DNA of 64,000 nucleotides from a virus (IMGVR_UViG_3300045988_163275:32001-96000); one strand, 5' to 3'. Counted from the first letter of the stretch, positions 140 to 61,503 are shown. Program-made: numbers and translations. The notes: generated from the letters alone by a model not told the origin.

Positions 140-469
140 TTGTCCGAAGTTAGCCAAAACAGACCAAAGGCAAGCGCCATAAAAGCGCCAATTTAACGCA
201 TTTTTGCGAGTCGCAGTATCTGACCATTACCCACAATAAAAACACGTTATAGCACGTTTTACAGCGTTTTAGCGTGTTGCTTATTTTGTCGTGTCGTTGG
301 CGTGATCCGCGCTATCCTTCGGGACGTGTCGGCAATATTGGCGCTATCCGTGGGCGCTCGCATATGATTGCCACGTTGGGCAACGTGTACGCGCTTACAG
401 TGGTTTACCCACGGATTCACATAATCACATAGCGAAAGCTATCTGGATGGCCCAGGGGCTGAAACCCCA

Positions 470-660
470 CCAGCGCTACCCCAGCGCCGCTACGCAATTT
501 CTGGCGCGATTCCGGGTTTCTCCCGCTCAGTTTTCTACATAAAGGCGACCCCCGCCGTTTCCCGAAAAAATCTTGGCCGTTTCCCGTCGGCTCATGAATG
601 CGTTCCTCGCCGTTTCTGAAAATTTCCCTGCGGCAGCTGGTGGCTATAGAGAAAGGGCCG
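470..660. repeat. cluster of CCGTTTCC(C/T)G / TTTCCCTG short repeats (copy 1)
   Basis: at least five CCGTTTC-type repeats within ~150 bp; near-identical arrangement recurs at ~4400-4700. Confidence 0.5.
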
Positions 661-679
661 TTTCTGGCCCTCTTCTCAG

Positions 680-1162
680 TTACACGCCATCAAGGATGTG
701 GATGCGGTTGCTTGCGTATACATTCAGCATAAAGTTAGCGCAAAACAGTTTCCATGTGTCAACGCCAGCGGCATACGTAATGTTTTTGCATTTTATTGCA
801 TTGTTGGCGATCCACATCCCCTGCGATACTGCTTCATCGTCGGAAAATTTGAACGACGATTGAGTTTTAATCCAGACAGAAATCTGCGTAGCGAACTCAA
901 TCAGCTTGGACTGGCAGAATCGCCCGGAGCGCACCGGAAAGACGAACGTTCCGAATCCAGAATTTACCACATATGCTTTCTCAAATACCCGCGAGTAACG
1001 ACGATTGCCAATGATGTCGCGTGCAATAATGCATTTTTCTTGTGCTGACAGTTCTACCGTCTCATTGTCGCGCCATGCACCAAGTACTCGTTTTTCAATG
1101 TCAGAGAACGTTACAGCGATATTGCCATGTGCGGGTGCGTTTACAGTAGCGATAAAATTCAT
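680..1162 (-). CDS. hypothetical protein (160 aa)
   Basis: ATG start at 1160-1162; preceded by leader motif A; no recognisable domain. Confidence 0.5.
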   Translation of the reverse strand: MNFIATVNAPAHGNIAVTFSDIEKRVLGAWRDNETVELSAQEKCIIARDIIGNRRYSRVFEKAYVVNSGFGTFVFPVRSGRFCQSKLIEFATQISVWIKTQSSFKFSDDEAVSQGMWIANNAIKCKNITYAAGVDTWKLFCANFMLNVYASNRIHILDGV

Positions 1163-1182
1163 GATTAATTACTTATCGTAAA

Positions 1183-1216
1183 TAACAAATTGTTTTCTTG
1201 TTGGTGTTAATTATCG
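1183..1216 (-). promoter_or_regulatory. leader motif A copy (AACAAATTGTTTTCTTGTTGGTGTTAATTATC)
   Basis: conserved ~35-bp element 20 nt upstream of start of 680..1162. Confidence 0.5.
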
Positions 1217-1338
1217 TTGTACGAATAAGGCGTCAAAGTGGAAAGTTGCGGTAGCCGGACGGGAACAGGTGGGTTTGTCGGTTGCCTGGAGGTAAGAGGT
1301 TGGTGTTTTTAGCCTGCGGGAAACAGGATGGTCATTTA

Positions 1339-1360
1339 AGGCCACCAGCATTGGTGGCCT
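1339..1360 (-). terminator. stem-loop built from Chi-like octamers (GGCCACCAGC-A-TTGGTGGCC)
   Basis: 8-bp stem immediately 3' of stop of 1367..1654; contains CCACCAGC (Chi complement). Confidence 0.4.
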
Positions 1361-1366
1361 TACTCT

Positions 1367-1654
1367 TTAGTGGAGCAGACCGATGTCGATGGTATCCCCT
1401 GAATCATCCACACGGATCATCAGCATGGCGAAGGCGTTTAGTGGATAGCTTGCGTGCCATTCAGGGAAGCGGTCATCTCGCATGAAGTCGGCAATGTCGT
1501 AAACGCAGCCCTCAAAGTGGAAGAATCGCGTGCTTACCTGCTCGTCATATTCCACATGATCCATTTCTTGCTGTTCTGTTTCCGGCAAGTCCAGCCATGA
1601 TTCAAGGAATACATTTTGTGCTTTAGGGGTAATGGTGAAATCAGTCATGAGCAT
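1367..1654 (-). CDS. hypothetical small acidic protein (95 aa)
   Basis: track ORF 1367..1780 begins with TTG and covers motif A; first ATG with GAGGAT SD at 1652-1654 (MLMTDFTITPK...). Confidence 0.45.
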   Translation of the reverse strand: MLMTDFTITPKAQNVFLESWLDLPETEQQEMDHVEYDEQVSTRFFHFEGCVYDIADFMRDDRFPEWHASYPLNAFAMLMIRVDDSGDTIDIGLLH

Positions 1655-1667
1655 ATCCTCACTGCGT

Positions 1668-1700
1668 AAACATATTGTTTTCTTGTTGGTGTAATTATCG
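1668..1700 (-). promoter_or_regulatory. leader motif A copy
   Basis: CATATTGTTTTCTTGTTGGTGTAATTATC 14 nt upstream of ATG at 1654. Confidence 0.5.
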
Positions 1701-1810
1701 CAGTGTAGATAAGGCATAAAAGACGTTAATACAGGCTGAATACACAAGAAAGGTTCTGGAAGTTGATAGCCAGGTTTCAAACTAACCTTCGGTTATTAAA
1801 AGTCATTTAA

Positions 1811-1830
1811 GACCACCAATGCTGGTGGCC
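1811..1830 (-). terminator. stem-loop containing Chi octamer GCTGGTGG
   Basis: GACCACCA-ATGC-TGGTGGCC hairpin 3' of small ORF 1838..1981. Confidence 0.35.
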
Positions 1831-1837
1831 TTAATAA

Positions 1838-1981
1838 TTATCGCCCGATTACGCTAAGGATCTTTTCCTCAACTGATTTGTTGTTGCGACTAAACTGCCT
1901 TGCGTATCTTATGACAGAAGAGGCGTTTCGCTTTCTGACCATCTCGGCTCTCTCCTTCAGGCGTTTCTTGAAATCGCCCAT
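1838..1981 (-). CDS. hypothetical small basic protein (47 aa)
   Basis: ATG at 1979-1981, K/R-rich; not in ORF track (<60 aa); hand-translated. Confidence 0.25.
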   Translation of the reverse strand: MGDFKKRLKERAEMVRKRNASSVIRYARQFSRNNKSVEEKILSVIGR

Positions 1982-1983
1982 AT

Positions 1984-2358
1984 TTACCACCAGGCGCAGA
2001 AGGTCAGTCTATTATTGTGAAAGTCGTGGTTCTTAATCAGATCTTCCACAATCTCTTTCAACTCCCCCACATCATGCCAGTAACCTTCATCGTACTCCTG
2101 ACTGCCGAAGAAAAAACCTTCCTGGGTAGGCAAGTACTCTTCGCAATTACTTTCGTTTATGTGCATCAAATGAGCCTTCAGAAAACAAATGTCATTCATC
2201 GTTAATTCTAAAAGCTCACAATTTTCGACTTCACCTACGTTGCGCTCCATCCACCCAACGAGCGCATTGAACTTACGGAAGTAAGCAACCTGCTTTCTGG
2301 ATGCCTCGTTATTCAGATCGTTTTTTGGCTGCGTCTCGATGTAGATATCAAGCCCCAT
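1984..2358 (-). CDS. hypothetical protein
   Basis: track ORF 1984..2400 starts with GTG; internal ATG at 2356-2358 has AAGGAA SD (MGLDIYIETQ...); alternative ATG at 2392-2394. Confidence 0.45.
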   Translation of the reverse strand: MGLDIYIETQPKNDLNNEASRKQVAYFRKFNALVGWMERNVGEVENCELLELTMNDICFLKAHLMHINESNCEEYLPTQEGFFFGSQEYDEGYWHDVGELKEIVEDLIKNHDFHNNRLTFCAWW

Positions 2359-2416
2359 GATGGTTTCCTTATTAAGTTGCTTCAGTGAAATCATTTTCAC
2401 AAATCAGATAAGGCAG

Positions 2417-2440
2417 AAAACAAATTGTTATCGGGCATAA
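2417..2440 (-). promoter_or_regulatory. leader motif A copy (degenerate)
   Basis: GAAAACAAATTGTTATCGGGCATAAG upstream of 1984..2400. Confidence 0.35.
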
Positions 2441-2475
2441 GAAAATGGCGCGGGGTACGCGCCATTCAAAGAGGA

Positions 2476-2871
2476 TTAAGCGAATACGCTTTCAGGGACA
2501 ATGGTGTCGATCTTTTCGCCGGAGATTATTCGCAGACCGTGTTGTCCCATCCAGGTACTATTGGTATTTAAACTCGATGTATAAACCGCATCGACCTTTT
2601 TCATCAAATTTTCAAACAACGTCTGATCCGCGCCACGGAAATGAGTTTCCAGTTTTATCAGTAAAGGGTCAGAAGCATTACTGATGCTTTGGTAACGCAC
2701 CGAATATTTCCCCTTTGTCGCCTCGCCGGTGCGAGTTAAGGTACTGGTGTGAACTTCTTCGCCGGAGGCATTATCGCGTAGCACAATTGTAATTTTTGCA
2801 ACTTTGTCTCCATTTTCCGTCTCTGATGCATAATACATATCCAGGGTCAGATTTTCGCGTTTAACGGTCAT
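2476..2871 (-). CDS. hypothetical protein (131 aa)
   Basis: ATG at 2869-2871 with AAGGAGAG SD 5 nt upstream. Confidence 0.55.
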   Translation of the reverse strand: MTVKRENLTLDMYYASETENGDKVAKITIVLRDNASGEEVHTSTLTRTGEATKGKYSVRYQSISNASDPLLIKLETHFRGADQTLFENLMKKVDAVYTSSLNTNSTWMGQHGLRIISGEKIDTIVPESVFA

Positions 2872-2908
2872 TTCACTCTCCTTAGTGTTTAATTTTTAAT
2901 TTTATTAT

Positions 2909-2927
2909 CATAAGTAAGTACTTACAA
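2909..2927. promoter_or_regulatory. palindromic operator-like motif B copy (TAAGTAAGTACTTAC)
   Basis: palindrome core TAAGTACTTA, 38 nt upstream of ATG 2871. Confidence 0.5.
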
Positions 2928-2935
2928 TACAAAAA

Positions 2936-2962
2936 AGCCCCGAAGGATTGGCGGGGCTGTCG
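2936..2962 (-). terminator. rho-independent terminator
   Basis: minus strand GCCCCG-loop-CGGGGC followed by TTTTTT, just 3' of stop of 2993..3304. Confidence 0.6.
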
Positions 2963-2992
2963 TACATTCGACTAACTACTGCTTGCACATGT

Positions 2993-3304
2993 TTAAGCTA
3001 CCGCCTGAACAGACGCTCGTTGGATCTCTTGTTGGGCGACACGGTTGGCTTCCATCAGCGCCAGTTCAAGCTGGTCCTCTGGCCACATTTTCTGGACCGA
3101 CATCCACCCTCTTCCACGCTGGCGACGAACTACCATCACATAGCGCGTAAAATTGCCCGCGTCGAAGGTAATGGCTTTTTCACGAAACAGACGGATAGAA
3201 GTCCCATTCGCTACGATATCCAGCAATGTGAGATGCCCCATTAAGGTTGGTTTTTCTTTTCTATCCTGGCCTTCAGCAAGACCCAGCACCAATGAAGTAT
3301 TCAT
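2993..3304 (-). CDS. hypothetical protein (103 aa)
   Basis: ATG at 3302-3304 with GGAG SD; track ORF extends to 3334 over motif A. Confidence 0.5.
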   Translation of the reverse strand: MNTSLVLGLAEGQDRKEKPTLMGHLTLLDIVANGTSIRLFREKAITFDAGNFTRYVMVVRRQRGRGWMSVQKMWPEDQLELALMEANRVAQQEIQRASVQAVA

Positions 3305-3314
3305 CACCACTCCG

Positions 3315-3350
3315 TAAACAAATTGTTTTCTCAATGGCGTAAATAATACC
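3315..3350 (-). promoter_or_regulatory. leader motif A copy
   Basis: AAACAAATTGTTTTCTCAATGGCGTAAATAATAC 11 nt upstream of ATG 3304. Confidence 0.5.
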
Positions 3351-3464
3351 AGTGTAAAAACGGCTACAAAGCATATTGCTCAGGCACATGAATTATCTAA
3401 AGGTGGTTCTGCCCTGCGGCTACAGAGAAGTTAAGCCAGCAGGCGGTGCTGGCTTTGGTTGGGC

Positions 3465-3794
3465 TTACGCGAATAACTCAAGGAATTCCTGCACGTCCCA
3501 ATGCTGGACAAGGTGAAGATAGAGCTTAGAAATCACGTCATTCTCGCTATCGCATGTGAAGTAGTACTTCTGGCTGCGGTTGTATGTGTCCACACAAAAT
3601 TCGCTCATATCCATAAAGTCAGCATCTTCACCCATGTCGCAAATAATCAAAGCAGGAGCATCATCACGAGTCATCAGCTCAAGCACCCAGCGCGAATTGA
3701 TCAGCGTGGAAGACCAACCTTCTAACTCATAAAACTGGTCAAACTCTTTTTGAGTCATTTTCTTGATTTGGTTGATGTCGATATTTGCAAACAT
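3465..3794 (-). CDS. hypothetical protein (109 aa)
   Basis: ATG at 3792-3794 with AAGGAT SD; track ORF extends to 3860. Confidence 0.5.
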   Translation of the reverse strand: MFANIDINQIKKMTQKEFDQFYELEGWSSTLINSRWVLELMTRDDAPALIICDMGEDADFMDMSEFCVDTYNRSQKYYFTCDSENDVISKLYLHLVQHWDVQEFLELFA

Positions 3795-3806
3795 AAAGCA
3801 ATCCTT

Positions 3807-3840
3807 AAACATGTTGTTTTCTGAATTGCGTAAACAATAC
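3807..3840 (-). promoter_or_regulatory. leader motif A copy
   Basis: AAACATGTTGTTTTCTGAATTGCGTAAACAATAC upstream of 3794. Confidence 0.5.
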
Positions 3841-3933
3841 CAGTAAGAAAACGGCCACAAAGTATATCGTTACGGTGCTGCGCTGCCCCGGAGGTTAATA
3901 GCGACAAAAGCCACCGTGCTGGTGGTCTCACTC

Positions 3934-4152
3934 TTAATCTTCGTCGTCCGGGAACTCGCTGTGTACCGCGTCCACCAGCTCCCGCTTTTCATCTTCACTA
4001 AGCAGGTGCCAGATATCCTTCCCTTTGGGCGATTCCCCTTCTGCCGGGACGAACGACCACAACTTGCGGTACAACTCCGGCCCCACTGCATCCAGACACT
4101 CAGCCAGGGAATCCACGCCCCACACCTCAACCGTCACAGGCATCTTAATCAT
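3934..4152 (-). CDS. hypothetical acidic protein (72 aa)
   Basis: ATG at 4150-4152 with GAGGAT SD; preferred over overlapping low-complexity frame 3870..4130. Confidence 0.5.
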   Translation of the reverse strand: MIKMPVTVEVWGVDSLAECLDAVGPELYRKLWSFVPAEGESPKGKDIWHLLSEDEKRELVDAVHSEFPDDED

Positions 4153-4183
4153 CTCTTCATCCTCACTTCGTTTCTATAACGTC

Positions 4184-4218
4184 TAAATATGTTGTTTACT
4201 TGTTGGTGTTATTATCGC
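4184..4218 (-). promoter_or_regulatory. leader motif A copy
   Basis: AAATATGTTGTTTACTTGTTGGTGTTATTATCGC upstream of 4152. Confidence 0.5.
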
Positions 4219-4239
4219 AATAAGACAAAGGCGAAAAAG

Positions 4240-4700
4240 GATTTTATGTCGTGAAAGCCAGGCTGGGCAGTGAATATCCGGGAACGACACGGGAACCAGT
4301 ATTTACGATATTCTGCTCTACGCGCGCCGCAGGGCTGGTGGGCAGAATTTTCTTCTCCCCGAAAACCTACTGAAATCGCTTGAGACCCGAGGATGGTCTG
4401 GCAGACTGGAGTTCAGCAGCTGCACGAGAGGGAACGACACTCCCCCGCGATTTTCAGGCGAGTGAAGAGTAAGGCGCACTCCCGAAGATTTCCCGCACCG
4501 CTCCCGCAGTCGTCTCTCACTCTGTACCGGGATGTACCCGTTTCCCGACCGGCAGCCAGCCTTTTCCCGGTTCGTATAGCGAGATTCCCACCGTTTCCCT
4601 GAAAAACCTCCAGCCTTTTCCCTGCGGCGACGTTCCCGTTCCTGAAAAGGGACATGGCCTTTTCCCTGGATGGCCCGAAGGCTGACCGAAGGGGTGGATA
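4240..4700. repeat. cluster of GGGAAC / CCGTTTCCC / CCTTTTCCC short repeats (copy 2)
   Basis: CCGTTTCCCTGAAAAA ... CCTTTTCCCTGCGGC arrangement mirrors 540-640; ORF-free. Confidence 0.5.
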
Positions 4701-5560
4701 GGGACGTTACGGGGGATGAAAGCTATGGCTTGAATTTATACGAAGAAAGTGGCGATACCCCTCCTTCCCTTCCCACTTATACCTCCCACGAATTTTCTCT
4801 CTTATGTGGGCATAAATCTTCTCTCTGATAACGCTCAATACGGCGACTATTCCTGTGGGTGAAATGGGTGGTTTGTTCTTTCTACCGGCATATGTGGTTT
4901 CGTTCTTCTTGAGGTGGTTCTTCTCTGTGTTTTCGTCAGGGTTGTTCTCGTTGTTTTGGTGATTGTTCTTCTCTGTGTATGGAGTAATGGCAGGTGGGCG
5001 ATTCCTTTCGTTATTGTATTTGAGTTGTTTGTCTTGAGAGCGTGAAAGGCTTTTGTGGTTATTTGTGTATTGAGTAATGGCGTTTCCCCGCGAATGTTCT
5101 GTTTCGTGTCTTTGGGGATTGAGGGAGTCCTTGCGGTAACAGGCTTCGTTAGAGTTTCAGTGGTTCTGGTGTTTATTCGCTGTTTGGGGAATGGCGTGTA
5201 GTGGGTATCGCATGTATGAATGTTTCGAGTTGCCTGTGAAAGTTAGGTTGGTTGTCCGGTAGCCTGGGAAGAAGAGGTGGGTCTTTTCAGTAGCCTGCCA
5301 TAAAGAGGTTGGTTGTTTTTGGGAATGTGGGTAATGGCGTCTCTGGGTTTCCTGTGGGTGTGGTTAGCTTGTTTTCTTGTGTCTGAAAACAACTTGTTTA
5401 GATGTCCAATATAACGCAACGGGAGCGCTTCTGAGCGTGTCTGTTTTTGGGTGGTATCACGAGTCGTTTTTGACGTTTTGGTCGCAGGGAGATGGATTCT
5501 GGTACGCTGGATTTGGGTATAAGAGATGGCGTGCGAAAACATCAACTTTTTAGACCAAAT
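4700..5560. repeat. ORF-free region with extreme G+T strand bias and internal direct repeats
   Basis: plus strand almost entirely G/T; repeated (G)AGTAATGGCG at ~4983, 5073, 5186, 5329 and GTTCTTCTCTGTGT twice; track ORFs here are compositional artefacts. Confidence 0.5.
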
Positions 5561-5595
5561 CAGGGGAAAGCGTTGACTTTACGTTGATGTGTTAT

Positions 5596-5625
5596 TTATT
5601 TGTTTTCTTATGGGTGTAATTAGCT
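5596..5625 (-). promoter_or_regulatory. leader motif A-like copy facing the G+T-rich region
   Basis: TTATTTGTTTTCTTATGGGTGTAATTAGC; would direct minus-strand transcription into 4700-5560. Confidence 0.3.
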
Positions 5626-5741
5626 TAAATGCCTTGTCACGCCTGGGATTGAGTGGGGTAGGGTGGTGGGGAAAGTGGCGATCAACGGACTCTTATAGAA
5701 ATCCTCAATTTGTGACCGCCAATATCAACGAGTTGCAGCCG

Positions 5742-6311
5742 TTAGTTGTTCAGATAGGCATCCGGAACGCGCACATAAAAGTTTCTTTCGCCGGTCAGTT
5801 CCAGAGTAACGTTTATGTCGTTGCCGTTATCCAGCGTAGCCGTCGCTTTATAGAACTTGTCCGTCACCTTGTCCTGAATTGTCACCTTCATACATTTCGG
5901 CGCTGTGGTTCCGTTATTCTCTTTCAGAATGGTCGTTACGAGAGGACAAGCCGCTTCTTCAAGAGCAACCTCTTCCTGGTGTGGGATACCGATGAAGATG
6001 TTACCAGCAAGCAACGCGACGATTACGATAAAAGGAAGTCGACTGCCTTTTGTAACGGTGGCACGTTTCCAGAGATAGACCGGAAGGAGAAATACTCCCC
6101 ACAGGATGGCCGGTGGTTCATACCCTGCATCAGACAATGCCATTCTGTCAGCCACCAGAAAGCCGAGTCCAGCGACTCCACCTATCACTATTGCATAATT
6201 CAAATACTCATCTGGCGGTACTCCAAAGAAGAGAGGCAGTAAAGCTAGAAGCCACGCATAAGCATTATTCAGAGGTTTTGTTTGTTGGTTCTGGGTTTCC
6301 ATCACATCCAT
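5742..6311 (-). CDS. hypothetical integral membrane protein (189 aa)
   Basis: three hydrophobic helices (LLALLPLFFGV, VIGGVAGLGFLV, FIVIVALLAGNIFIG); ATG at 6309-6311. Confidence 0.5.
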   Translation of the reverse strand: MDVMETQNQQTKPLNNAYAWLLALLPLFFGVPPDEYLNYAIVIGGVAGLGFLVADRMALSDAGYEPPAILWGVFLLPVYLWKRATVTKGSRLPFIVIVALLAGNIFIGIPHQEEVALEEAACPLVTTILKENNGTTAPKCMKVTIQDKVTDKFYKATATLDNGNDINVTLELTGERNFYVRVPDAYLNN

Positions 6312-6953: not shown

Positions 6954-6986
6954 AAACAATTTGTTTTCTTATTGGTATTATTATCT
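6954..6986 (-). promoter_or_regulatory. leader motif A copy
   Basis: AACAATTTGTTTTCTTATTGGTATTATTATC upstream of 6941. Confidence 0.5.
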
Positions 6987-29077: not shown

Positions 29078-29183
29078 TACTATCCACTATAGGGAGCAAA
29101 ATAACCACTGTAGAGAGCATAATAACCGCTATGAAGAGCAAAACAACCTCTCTGGAGAGTAGTCGGTATCCACTGTAGTGAGT
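29078..29183 (+). repeat. iteron cluster A (5 direct repeats, ~21-bp period)
   Basis: consensus (A)TAACCACTGTAGAGAGT at ~29078, 29099, 29119, 29140, 29165. Confidence 0.8.
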
Positions 29184-29461: not shown

Positions 29462-29585
29462 GATATCCACTATAGCGAGAATAACAACCACTATGGAGAG
29501 TAAATCAACCACTATGGAGAGTAGAAAAACCGCTGTAGGCGGTAGGATAACCACTGTGATGGGTGCTACTATCCACTGTAATCAG
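29462..29585 (+). repeat. iteron cluster B (6 direct repeats) immediately upstream of repA
   Basis: six ~19-bp repeats at ~22-bp spacing ending 40 bp before repA ATG. Confidence 0.8.
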
Positions 29586-29625: not shown

Positions 29626-30681
29626 ATGAGCGTAAACGACAATAAAAACATTGCGATAAGCGAAGCATTTTCCGAAACAGACAAAAAGACCGGCGAAGTT
29701 GTTACGTTAGTTCCTAACACCAACAACACAGTTCAGCCTGTTGCTCTGATGCGTCTTGGTCTCTTCGTTCCGACGCTGAAATCGACATCCAGGGGTAGAA
29801 AGGGGCAAATGGTCTCTATGGACGCCTCCGCTGAACTCAAACAGCTGTCTCTGGCCAAAGCCGAAGGGTACGAGGATATAAGGATTGCTGGTCTTCGTCT
29901 TGATATGGATAACGATTTCAAAACATGGGTGGGCATCATCCACGCGTTCGCCAAGCACAAGGTTGTTGGTGACACCGTCACGTTGCCGTTCGTCGAGTTC
30001 GTCAGACTTTGTGGCATACCAACAGCCAGATCGTCCGCGAAGTTACGTAAGCGCCTGGACAGCTCTCTAAGTCGTATCGCCACAAACACCATCTCATTCC
30101 GCAGCAAAGGCTCTGAAGAGTATTACGTTACGCACCTTGTGCAGACGGCAAAGTACAGTACCAAGAATGACACGGTCGAACTGAAGGCCGATCCTAAGAT
30201 TTTCGAACTTTACCAGTTCGACAAAAAGGTGCTTTTGCAACTTCGGGCCATCAACGAACTCTCCAGAAAGGAATCCGCGCAGGCGCTCTACACCTTCATT
30301 GAAAGTTTGCCACCAGACCCGGCGCCAATCTCATTGGCTCGCTTACGCGCCAGACTTAACTTAACCAGCCGCACCATTACCCAGAATGCGACAGTCAGGA
30401 AGGCGATGGAGCAACTGCGAGAGATCGGCTATCTCGATTACACTGAAGTGAAACGCGGCAGCTCGGTCTACTTCGTCATCCACTATAGACGGCCGAAGTT
30501 ACGTTCGGCACTGCCGCCATCTATGGCCACGCCTGAAGATCCAGAAGATATCTTGCCAGGTGATGATCCGGAGGACATTATCGATGTTGCTCCTGAAGAA
30601 AAAGACGGGGAAATGGTCATGTTGAGCAAGGAAGAACTGGCGATTCTCGAAGAGCTGCGCAAGGCAAAGGCTCGCAAATAG
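29626..30681 (+). CDS. repA: plasmid replication initiator RepA (iteron-binding)
   Basis: flanked on both sides by iterons; [61 protein letters not shown] blocks resemble P1-type RepA as I recall it. Confidence 0.8.
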
Positions 30682-47560: not shown

Positions 47561-48121
47561 ATGGGGATAATTCTGATAACCTGTAGTCAGTACTGCGTAG
47601 TCGCAGATGCTCTGTATAGCCACGGTTGCGATGATGCGCTCATTTGCTACTACGGAAACTCAGTGTATGTAGAATTTGACCGAGAAGCTAAATCTTTAGA
47701 TGAAGCAATCGAATCGGCAATCCTTGATATTGAAACAGCAGGCATTGGCGCAGTGGTGGAATCGGTAGATTCAGCACTGGTAGGCTTGAGCGATATTGCT
47801 CAACTCTCTGGCTTAACGCGCCAGGCTATTACTCTGCTTAAAGACGGATTACGTGGCAAAGGTGATTTTCCTTGCCCTGTTCAGCGTATCAGCGGTCAGT
47901 CTCCACTCTGGGACTGGGCGGAAGTCGCTAAATGGTTGAATGACTGCGGTCGTCTTGACAGCAAAGACGAAAAAGCACGGGAAGAACTGGTGCGTAACGC
48001 GCGCACATTGAGTACGTGGAATCTTGCCCTGCGTATAAGATCGTTGGGCGACATTCATGAGGTGGAGAGAGTTACTCGCTCACTCAGTCACTCGCAAGAC
48101 TGCGAAAAAATTTGCGCATAA
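47561..48121 (+). CDS. putative transcriptional regulator with AlpA-like HTH C-terminal domain
   Basis: LSDIAQLSGLTRQAITLLKDGLRGKGDFPCPVQRISGQSPLWDWAEVAKWL; terminator follows; start uncertain. Confidence 0.45.
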   Translation: MGIILITCSQYCVVADALYSHGCDDALICYYGNSVYVEFDREAKSLDEAIESAILDIETAGIGAVVESVDSALVGLSDIAQLSGLTRQAITLLKDGLRGKGDFPCPVQRISGQSPLWDWAEVAKWLNDCGRLDSKDEKAREELVRNARTLSTWNLALRIRSLGDIHEVERVTRSLSHSQDCEKICA

Positions 48122-61428: not shown

Positions 61429-61503
61429 TGGCGATGGTGGGTGGACTCGAACCACCGACCAGTTGATTAACAGTCAACCGCTCTACCACTGAGCTACACC
61501 ATC
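61429..61503 (-). tRNA. tRNA-Asn (anticodon GTT), CCA encoded
   Basis: hand-folded cloverleaf: acceptor GATGGTG/CACCATC, anticodon stem GTTGA/TCAAC with loop CTGTTAA, T-arm GGTGGTTCGAGTCCACC; differs from E. coli tRNA-Asn. Confidence 0.85.

Follow-up and report, generated by a model that had tools for sequence, protein, structure and literature searches.

Two phased box arrays flank the variable small-gene block of an SSU5-type phage-plasmid

The window, a 64,000-nt stretch of viral DNA, represents a phage-plasmid of the SSU5/pHCM2/pMT1 type. Its two clusters of short repeats, arrays A and B, are cis-acting DNA elements conserved among relatives. Both lie in DNA devoid of genes, one on each side of a block of small early genes that varies in content. 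We consider it probable (about 80%) that they are docking sites for one element-encoded, sequence-specific DNA-binding protein, which would assemble cooperatively along one helix face. Joint action of the two is likely, since both edges carry the same box.

A preliminary description of this DNA had noted duplicated repeat clusters about 4 kb apart, and the clusters are real. The motif CCKTTTCCC has eight matches in the 64 kb, all on the + strand, where 0.96 +/- 0.84 were expected from 100 dinucleotide-preserving shuffles (maximum 3); a separate Markov simulation yielded 0.8 matches on average and never more than 4. Seven of the eight copies fall in two same-strand clusters, 555-634 and 4538-4666, starting at 555 and 577 (block A) and at 4538, 4560, 4591, 4614, and 4658 (block B), with a spacing of mostly 22 bp. 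The search for the motif elsewhere in the element, proposed with that description, returned a single stray in the window beyond both clusters (36381), and in 100 kb of a near-identical complete plasmid the boxes were restricted to the two array loci. Comparing the window with itself, another check proposed, aligned 551-622 with 4587-4648 (70% identity over 73 nt, E ~1e-3 within the window), the sole non-self match for either block. The 12-mer TTTCCCTGCGGC occurs in the window at 623 and 4617 only, and CTGGATGGCCC is common to 443-453 (+ strand), left of array A, and 4666-4676, right of array B. A two-element arrangement had also been ascribed to the two blocks. Both have it (CCGTTTCCCGAAAAA at 555, CCGTTTCCCTGAAAA at 4591), but the second element of block A is GAAAATTTCCCTGCGGC and not CC(G)TTTTCCCTGCGGC, and the spacing between the two elements is unequal (68 vs 26 bp).

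Boxes measure 9-10 bp and share the consensus R-S-C-C-K-T-T-T-C-C-C with the invariant core CGTTTC. Within the arrays, boxes run head-to-tail on a single strand, mostly 22 bp (two helical turns) apart. Array A (555-634, + strand) comprises three boxes, and a terminator hairpin supplies one more. Its elements are CCGTTTCCC at 555-563 and 577-585 (22 bp apart), the weaker copy CCGTTTCTG at 610-618, and TTTCCCTGCGGC at 623-634; no genes occupy this stretch, which has convergent transcription units on either side. The terminator-like hairpin (GGGCC-GTTTCT-GGCCC, 655-670) is conserved, lies just 3' of a 160-aa gene (stop codon 680-682), and holds the fourth, degenerate box of array A (658-666, again CCGTTTCTG). 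Array B (4538-4666, + strand) has six boxes, the five given above and the weaker copy CCGTTCCTG at 4636, with CCGTTTCCC-type and CCTTTTCCC-type boxes in alternation and spacings of 22, 31, 23, 22, and 22 bp. The further GGGAAC copies that had been listed between 4240 and 4600 are opposite-strand boxes. A pair of them occupies 4280-4297, with GGGAACGACAC (4280-4290) followed by GGGAACC (4291-4297) on the + strand, which on the - strand reads GGTTCCC-GT-GTCGTTCCC, the boxes being ~10 bp apart; GGGAACGACAC at 4430-4440 is a further such box on the - strand. Relative to the first small gene, the pair is ~40-60 bp upstream of the leader/promoter region; it is partly conserved in Klebsiella relatives as GGGAGC and absent in SSU5.

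Array A was detected in 769 plasmid records and array B in 718 (Escherichia, Klebsiella, Enterobacter, Salmonella, Citrobacter, and Cronobacter). The arrays were also present in the phages SSU5 and Cyrano and in a clade only 65-70% identical, which was revealed by scanning viral contigs for two boxes in register (107 loci, mostly SSU5-like). The same search of 596 Gb of genomes gave noise and CRISPR-like repeats, with only one Klebsiella match. Array A was conserved in all relatives examined, and ACCGTTTC of array B was invariant across seven divergent relatives; the 12-mer common to A and B is not retained in B in some relatives, and pMT1 has lost array B. A 52-kb derivative without any virion genes retains both arrays, and six near-identical 52-kb plasmids have IS100 between array B and the block genes. 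In loci fetched by BLAST and not by pattern, box columns were 93% / 86% identical, compared with 81% / 64% for spacer columns, and the modal start-to-start spacing was 22 bp, accounting for 51 of the 131 intervals of array A and 100 of the 153 non-overlapping ones of array B. By sequence comparison, the boxes are evidently under purifying selection: boxes and phasing are kept at 65-80% identity, whereas spacers and intervening DNA have diverged beyond recognition.

This pattern of divergence argues against the arrays being inert leftovers of an old segmental duplication of ~0.8 kb, a reading that we regard as very improbable. What does suggest a duplicated module is an unrelated second family of repeats (1232-1340 and 5236-5320), whose two copies are arranged colinearly with A and B at near-equal distance (681 vs 649 bp).

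Protein binding, as offered in the preliminary description, is the best-fitting reading of the arrays, and it is supported indirectly by the boxes and 22-bp register kept between diverging spacers, by the single orientation, and by finding neither a coding nor an RNA-structure signal. The ORFs 4393-4602 (+) and 4413-4655 (-) and SSU5_109, which is annotated over array B, were rejected as coding: indels that set relatives apart are of 1 nt or non-triplet, and spacers diverge while boxes stay. Action at the RNA level is hardly credible to us. It would make the arrays a + strand Rho-loading (rut) site against antisense read-through, a GGGAAA-rich - strand sponge or antitermination element, or partners in pairing between A-strand and B-strand leader RNAs. 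The strict strand polarity would suit such roles, as would a C-rich, G-poor + strand RNA that folds less well than shuffles (fold z = +1.5 / +1.4) and the place of array A, where + strand read-through would collide with the block. Conserved, however, are the 22-bp register and a specific box, not mere composition; the absence of the shared 12-mer from B in some relatives also speaks against RNA, and neither a promoter for the needed strand nor covariation was found. A structured RNA was rejected on an alifold consensus of -5.8 / -6.6 kcal/mol with a positive, that is unfavourable, covariation term, and Rfam gave no match in 140-5750 at E <= 1. An FljA-like RNA-binding protein, whose gene in relatives is 1.8 kb beyond the window's left end, was dropped as a candidate binder of GGGAAACGG RNA; it had been suggested by a presumed similarity to the fliC leader.

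The arrays do bracket the small leader-motif genes, as had been described: eight minus-strand ORFs, 680-1162 through 3934-4152, each with the leader palindrome AAACAAnTTGTTT, form the block 680-4152. All eight belong to PHROGs of unknown function, and no Pfam domain was found in their proteins. The inter-array block measures 1.5-4 kb and differs in gene content among relatives, in every one of which the arrays bracket it; the 160-aa gene (680-1162) adjoining array A is its only constant member. Homologues of the 160-aa protein come almost only from large (~100-kb) Enterobacteriaceae contigs, and as a candidate array binder it was not supported (hhalign vs Nu1, probability 0.3%). Next to array B is a gene-free, conserved segment of 1.1 kb, rich in repeats and strongly skewed between strands. 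The block coincides with the densest Chi zone of the element (467-4341): with GCTGGTGG at 636, 1821, 3918, and 4334 and CCACCAGC at 467, 1342, and 3972, it has seven Chi in 4.3 kb vs 13 in the remaining 59.7 kb, in both orientations. Six relatives, the distant clade included, present the same concentration.

Because of this Chi density, and because the box core CGTTTCC is identical to that of the lambda cosB R boxes (gpNu1 sites), we tentatively prefer a role in packaging, in which the small terminase, or a partner of it, may recognise the arrays as pac/cosB-like sites or boundaries. The Chi-rich block lying between or beside them would then be the terminally redundant part of the virion chromosome. 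Whichever end of the injected linear DNA RecBCD entered, it would meet correctly oriented Chi in the block, and RecA would recircularise the genome to give the plasmid prophage. The early genes would sit at a DNA end, as in T5, SPO1, and T7. More doubtful is the specific version in which the SSU5-type virion chromosome would carry the block either as a direct terminal repeat or as its pac-proximal redundant end, the same-orientation arrays would be boundary signals for a non-lambda terminase with a converged or inherited lambda-R-like box, and the Chi cluster would drive RecBCD/RecA recircularisation.

The likeness to lambda extends to R2 (GGAAACGACAG), which resembles the inverted array-region box GGGAACGACAC, and to the presence of several non-coding copies within ~150 bp, one of them inverted. 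The 7-bp core is shared, with different flanks (..CGTTTCCKTTCT.. in lambda vs ..CCGTTTCCCKGAAAA.. in the arrays). Unlike lambda cosB, there are two arrays and not one, their regular 22-bp phasing differs from the R3-R2-R1 spacing, and the terminase genes are 12-16 kb from the arrays instead of adjacent to the site. In the relative pGS04EC-1 (the terminase region lies outside the window), TerL is T4-type, matches Terminase_6N, and is not gpA-type. The ORF directly upstream, the candidate TerS, is annotated by PHROG as 'DNA binding domain', which counts for packaging; no Nu1 homologue was recognised in it (no Pfam family, BLASTP E = 9 vs lambda Nu1). Since the candidate TerS lacks Nu1 similarity and TerL is not gpA-type, the 7-bp match may be due to chance, which we estimate at ~5% given the number of known sites compared. 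A lambda cosN-like GCGGCGAC at 4624-4631 was discarded as a chance match not conserved among relatives.

The relatives of TerL are from T1-like, Jersey-like, and T5-like phages (26% identity to T5-like terminases), which are headful or terminal-repeat packagers, the T1-like and Jersey-like ones being headful. A single pac would suffice for headful packaging, which argues against this role for two arrays. In T5 and SPO1, the terminal-repeat early regions contain numerous small early genes that have promoters of their own, next to non-coding DNA rich in repeats. The SSU5-type block is likewise a set of small early genes beside such DNA, and the T5-like TerL is distantly related; unlike in T5 and SPO1, terminal repetition of this block is a proposal, and the other TerL relatives are T1-like and Jersey-like. 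None of 13 SSU5-like phage records carries the block twice, and none of those with a listed position starts at an array; the ends of the GenBank phage records, circular or starting at the terminase, are uninformative on termini. Also against packaging, sequence analysis found no binding protein for the array boxes, and a high density of Chi could have other uses, for instance in cassette exchange or in protection following restriction.

The opposite-strand boxes at 4280-4297, just upstream of the promoter of the first small gene, resemble a transcription-factor site more closely than a packaging signal. Long-range regulation is a possible role, to which we give somewhat less credit: a phage-plasmid regulator bound to both arrays and to the promoter-proximal inverted boxes would loop or insulate the block, leaving it silent in the lysogen or activated on infection. 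There are precedents in the lambda OL-OR loop and in P2 Cox and 186 Apl, each of which binds direct-repeat arrays at two separate loci, and head-to-tail repeats are typical of winged-helix regulators. Arrays that surround the block in every relative despite its varying content, and inverted boxes so close to the first gene's leader, speak for such a regulator. In the Cyrano lysogen transcriptome, CYRAN_109 is the only block gene listed as expressed above local background (PMC9928086), which counts for regulation and also, as it fits lytic or early genes, for packaging. On the other hand, array A has no promoter nearby, lying 3' of a terminator and amid convergent genes; the leader palindromes make better candidates for operators; the promoter-proximal boxes are absent in SSU5; IS100 parts array B from the genes in the six 52-kb plasmids; and the Chi density is left unexplained.

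Partition or plasmid pairing is unlikely in our view. The arrays would be centromere or pairing sites of a low-copy plasmid prophage, bound by the small partner of the ParA-like ATPase or by a ParB-N-domain protein. Type Ib/II centromeres (R1 parC, pB171 parC1/parC2) are direct-repeat arrays, often in two clusters; R1 parC, pB171 parC1/parC2, and TP228 parH resemble arrays A and B in their short direct repeats in two clusters, and are bound cooperatively by a small protein. The arrays are direct repeats in non-coding DNA, as a centromere requires, the 52-kb derivative keeps both of them without virion genes, and no array of centromere-like repeats was found next to the family's ParA-like (MipZ/CbiA) gene and the 117-aa partner encoded with it. 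The Cyrano copy number of ~5.5 (PMC9928086) was also counted for partition. However, type Ib/II centromeres flank or precede their own par operon, whereas the arrays are ~40 kb from the family's only ParA-like operon: in pGS04EC-1, the ParA-like gene and partner lie at 33.8-34.9 kb and the arrays at 73.9 and 77.9 kb. The 319-bp region upstream of this operon in pGS04EC-1 held no boxes, though autoregulation would predict them there. The loss of array B from pMT1 also counts against partition but is not decisive, because pMT1 carries a P1-type par system.

An accessory role in replication appears more unlikely still, whether the arrays were the iterons of a second origin or a lytic one, or formed a bipartite pair such as ori/crr of satellite phage P4. 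In P4, two iteron clusters ~4.5 kb apart are both initiator-bound, and 22-bp phased direct repeats are the classic iteron layout; those of R6K, RK2, P1, and F are likewise head-to-tail repeats of ~22 bp, sometimes in two clusters that pair (handcuffing). As in P4, the same short box forms two clusters a few kb apart in the same orientation, with variable distance tolerated, and array B is next to the repeat-rich, strand-skewed segment. Unlike plasmid iterons, the arrays have no adjacent rep gene, DUE, or DnaA box, and unlike in P4, the neighbouring genes include no alpha-like primase-helicase initiator and no connection of the arrays with replication emerged. No 40-mer of >=72% A+T was found within 140-680 or near 4240-4700, DnaA boxes gave one-mismatch matches only, none within or directly beside either array, and there was no GATC cluster nearby. 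Adjacent proteins showed no initiator-like domain, cumulative GC skew had no turning point at the arrays, and pMT1 replicates without array B. Of the roles offered in the preliminary description (partition, packaging, or origin), that of plasmid origin is excluded, with RepA (IncFIB-type) having different 21-bp iterons (CCACTATAGAGAGCAAAATAA, 29084-29159 and 29467-29531) that bear no likeness to CCKTTTCCC and lie upstream of repA (29626-30681), 25 kb away.

A full-text literature search returned no paper on CCKTTTCCC repeats or on cis-acting sites (packaging, partition, or lytic control) of SSU5-type phage-plasmids; by that search, the role of both arrays is previously undescribed. These phage-plasmids are common, with pHCM2 in S. 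Typhi, pMT1 in Y. pestis, and hundreds of Klebsiella, E. coli, and Enterobacter plasmids, and some carry resistance genes. Both arrays are among the best-conserved non-coding DNA of the family and mark the limits of the gene block that varies most in it, where early and possibly anti-defence genes are probably stored. If the terminal-repeat reading were true, it would give the first map of cis-acting packaging and circularisation for the pHCM2/pMT1/SSU5 family. Identification of the presumed array-binding protein would help to explain how SSU5-type elements switch between plasmid and virion and why new gene cassettes accumulate exactly between the arrays, and it would offer handles for curing or incompatibility tools.

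The two repeat clusters of the preliminary description proved to be real. The box CCKTTTCCC occurs eight times in the window, all on the plus strand, against 0.96 expected, and seven of the eight copies fall inside two clusters, array A (555-634) and array B (4538-4666). With degenerate copies counted, the boxes of array A start at 555, 577, and 610, with a further one at 658 within a terminator hairpin, and those of array B at 4538, 4560, 4591, 4614, 4636, and 4658, all in plus orientation. When the window was compared with itself, the two array regions were each other's only non-self match (70% over 73 nt), and both contain the 12-mer TTTCCCTGCGGC and the 11-mer CTGGATGGCCC. The further GGGAAC copies are also present, as boxes on the opposite strand (GGGAACGACAC twice, and GGGAACC) at 4280-4297 and 4430-4440. 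A complete plasmid of 98% identity, examined over 100 kb, has the strict box in array B and as one chance match on the other strand; its array A contains degenerate boxes only.

The window belongs to a phage-plasmid of the SSU5/pHCM2/pMT1 type, as judged from sequence matches and gene content. Its first 8 kb match 783 plasmid records, for the most part non-mobilizable, from Klebsiella, Escherichia, Enterobacter, Yersinia, Salmonella, and others, together with the phages SSU5, Cyrano, and their relatives; the remainder contains repA and dnaE as well as a gene resembling DNA methyltransferases (DUF4942) and further genes of this family. The complete single-replicon relatives examined are 106-112 kb long and of IncFIB type, and on the 106-kb plasmid pGS04EC-1 the window corresponds to about 73.3 kb through 106 kb and on to 20 kb. 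A tRNA-Asn (GTT) gene lies at 61429-61503 (minus strand).

Both arrays lie in non-coding DNA. Array A lies within a 540-bp gene-free interval that separates convergent units: to its left, a plus-strand gene ends at 62, with two terminators (67-87 and 113-134) behind it, and to its right, the minus-strand gene for a 160-aa protein (680..1162) ends at 680, followed by a hairpin (655-670). Array B lies toward the left of a region without genes (4153-5741, about 1.5 kb), where no gene is annotated in any relative compared. A coding sequence is ruled out by the indels and the drift pattern among relatives.

The surrounding DNA has features of its own. Left of array A, conserved non-coding sequence (140-540) carries GCGCTATCC in copies 32 bp apart (296-354), the palindrome CACGTTGGGCAACGTG (372-387), and two copies of TTACCCAC (227 and 405). 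A 0.94-kb gene-free segment (4700-5640), kept in all relatives, is strongly GT-rich on the plus strand (G 29%, T 37%, C 16%) and bears 24-bp GTTCTTCTC repeats (4916-4978) and four GTAATGGCG boxes. GATC is absent between 3700 and 5679, where about eight would be expected. Another repeat family, CGGTAGCCTGG-N6-AGAGGTGGGT, is present as three copies, spaced about 30 bp, at 1249-1338 and again at 5223-5316. Relative to arrays A and B these sites are colinear, about 650-680 bp away, so that a module of about 0.8 kb may have been duplicated long ago.

Array A DNA is present in 769 plasmid records and array B DNA in 718; the numbers differ because Yersinia pMT1 kept A and lost B, an IS1541-associated deletion in Y. 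pestis (locus L238, 10728-11186) having taken array B and about 20 kb. Among seven loci retrieved by BLAST, identity is 93% (A) and 86% (B) in box columns but 81% and 64%, respectively, in the intervening spacers, and ACCGTTTC shows no variation when seven divergent array-B sequences are aligned. Scanning viral contigs for the pattern yielded about 70 further loci, among them those of a clade whose flanking DNA is only 65-70% identical (L138, L150, L197, L207, L231) and which retains both arrays. It is very improbable that the arrays are inert remnants of duplication. The box-to-box distance has its mode at 22 bp (51 intervals in A and 100 in B, among unique sequences), with minor classes at 21, 30-34, 44, and 48 bp.

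Because the box is short and asymmetric, keeps one orientation and a two-turn register, and is conserved while the spacers are free to vary in a non-coding site, we infer that a sequence-specific protein would bind each array cooperatively, head to tail, on one face of the DNA (probability roughly 0.8). The pattern is akin to iterons, centromere repeats, terminase R boxes, and excisionase/Cox/Apl arrays. However, the arrays belong neither with RepA iterons nor with lambda cosB, and the adjacency expected of centromeres is absent. A full-text literature search returned nothing on them; they would be arrays like known protein-binding kinds, themselves without a description that we could find. 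A CRISPR array was rejected, since the boxes are 9-10 bp and the spacers, of 12-13 bp, are orthologous between relatives. A known or structured RNA was also rejected for both arrays, and we regard roles at the RNA level as highly unlikely.

Among the functions proposed preliminarily, the plasmid origin lies elsewhere. It is formed by two sets of 21-bp iterons, CCACTATAGAGAGCAAAATAA, upstream of repA (29084-29159 and 29467-29531; RepA, 29626..30681). An AT-rich element, a good DnaA box, and a GATC cluster are all missing near the arrays, and GC skew has no turning point at them; an accessory role in replication, as for P4 ori/crr, ranks fourth and is improbable. Partition, ranked third, is slightly less so. 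A distance of 40 kb separates the arrays from the genes of the family's ParA-like ATPase and of its 117-aa partner, and the DNA upstream of the ParA-like gene has no repeat array and no boxes, only the palindromic leader common to the small genes described next (locus L009, 34900-34925).

As first described, the arrays bracket a run of small genes, eight minus-strand ORFs (680..4152). None of the eight has a Pfam family, and all fall in PHROGs of unknown function. Relatives differ in which genes this block holds, and the distance between the arrays therefore ranges from about 1.5 kb (L161, L172) up to about 4 kb; the block's constant member is the 160-aa gene. The encoded protein is restricted to the SSU5/pHCM2/pMT1 family, and its predicted model, although of good quality, gave no significant fold match. 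Upstream of every small minus-strand gene stands a conserved leader (1184-1207, 1669-1692, 3317-3340, 3808-3831, 4186-4209, 5594-5617, and 6955-6978) whose palindrome, AAACAAnTTGTTT, is probably an operator for a dimeric repressor; no credible ORF follows the copy at 5594, which is directed into the gene-free region. In the transcriptome of the Cyrano lysogen of E. coli LF82, CYRAN_109 is the only block gene listed as expressed above local background (PMC9928086), which fits a block of lytic or early genes. Long-range regulation or looping of this early block by the arrays ranks second, after packaging, and is a doubtful possibility: the inverted boxes at 4280-4297 are promoter-proximal, but array A sits behind a terminator, and the leader palindromes are better operator candidates.

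Every relative also encodes a FljA-family protein (PF03614, repressor of phase-1 flagellin; E = 6e-69), an unexpected cargo for a phage-plasmid. Its gene (locus L010, 21636-22160) is located 1.8 kb outside the left edge of the window, immediately upstream of the region with array A. The other conserved genes to the left in relatives encode two proteins of unknown family.

An IS100 has inserted between array B and the genes, at the equivalent of 4462-4473, in locus L240 (CP057419.1, 39700-41660). This insertion is present in six near-identical 52-kb plasmids without any virion genes, and such a derivative keeps both arrays. Neither this derivative nor the B-less pMT1 tells the candidate roles apart.

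We tentatively rank first, although as less likely than not, a role of the arrays as packaging or terminal-redundancy signals. The R boxes of lambda cosB have the same core as our box, CGTTTCC, and the inverted copies resemble R2. The element is not a lambda-type cos, although it could function like one, because TerL is T4-type (Terminase_6N), the ORF upstream of it (phrog_867, annotated 'DNA binding domain') is unrelated to lambda Nu1, and the terminase genes lie 12-16 kb from the arrays. Relatives of this TerL include T1-like, Jersey-like, and T5-like phages, which are headful or terminal-repeat packagers. Outside the window, upstream of TerL, the late operon (L010, 12045-16302) encodes two ParB-N-domain proteins and two ABC-type ATPases consecutively. 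Candidate binders of the arrays would be the phrog_867 protein, the 160-aa protein (phrog_1641), the 117-aa partner of the ParA-like ATPase, these two ParB-N proteins, and a 186-aa excisionase-like protein encoded at 47561..48121 of the window.

Finally, Chi sites (GCTGGTGG) are concentrated between the arrays, about 7-fold more densely than in the rest of the window: the 4.3-kb block has seven, in both orientations (467-, 636+, 1342-, 1821+, 3918+, 3972-, and 4334+), and the remaining 59.7 kb has 13. In pGS04EC-1, 7 of the 28 sites in 100 kb fall in this block, and all relatives checked have the same concentration, from Klebsiella, Salmonella, Cyrano, and SSU5 to the distant clade (L002, L003, L006, L007, L150, and L009 with L010). 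Three sites lie within terminator-hairpin stems (1336-1362, 1808-1834, and 3911-3925), and those on both sides of array A are oriented to stop RecBCD coming from either side. P1, also a phage-plasmid, is unusually Chi-rich. A Chi-dense segment bounded by arrays is what chromosome-end DNA that needs recombination would be expected to show. Under this proposal, which we consider rather unlikely as a whole, the arrays would delimit a terminally redundant module for Chi-driven circularisation and early genes; the segment between them would be located at, or adjacent to, the termini of the linear chromosome as injected, and this end DNA would have to recombine for the chromosome to circularise.
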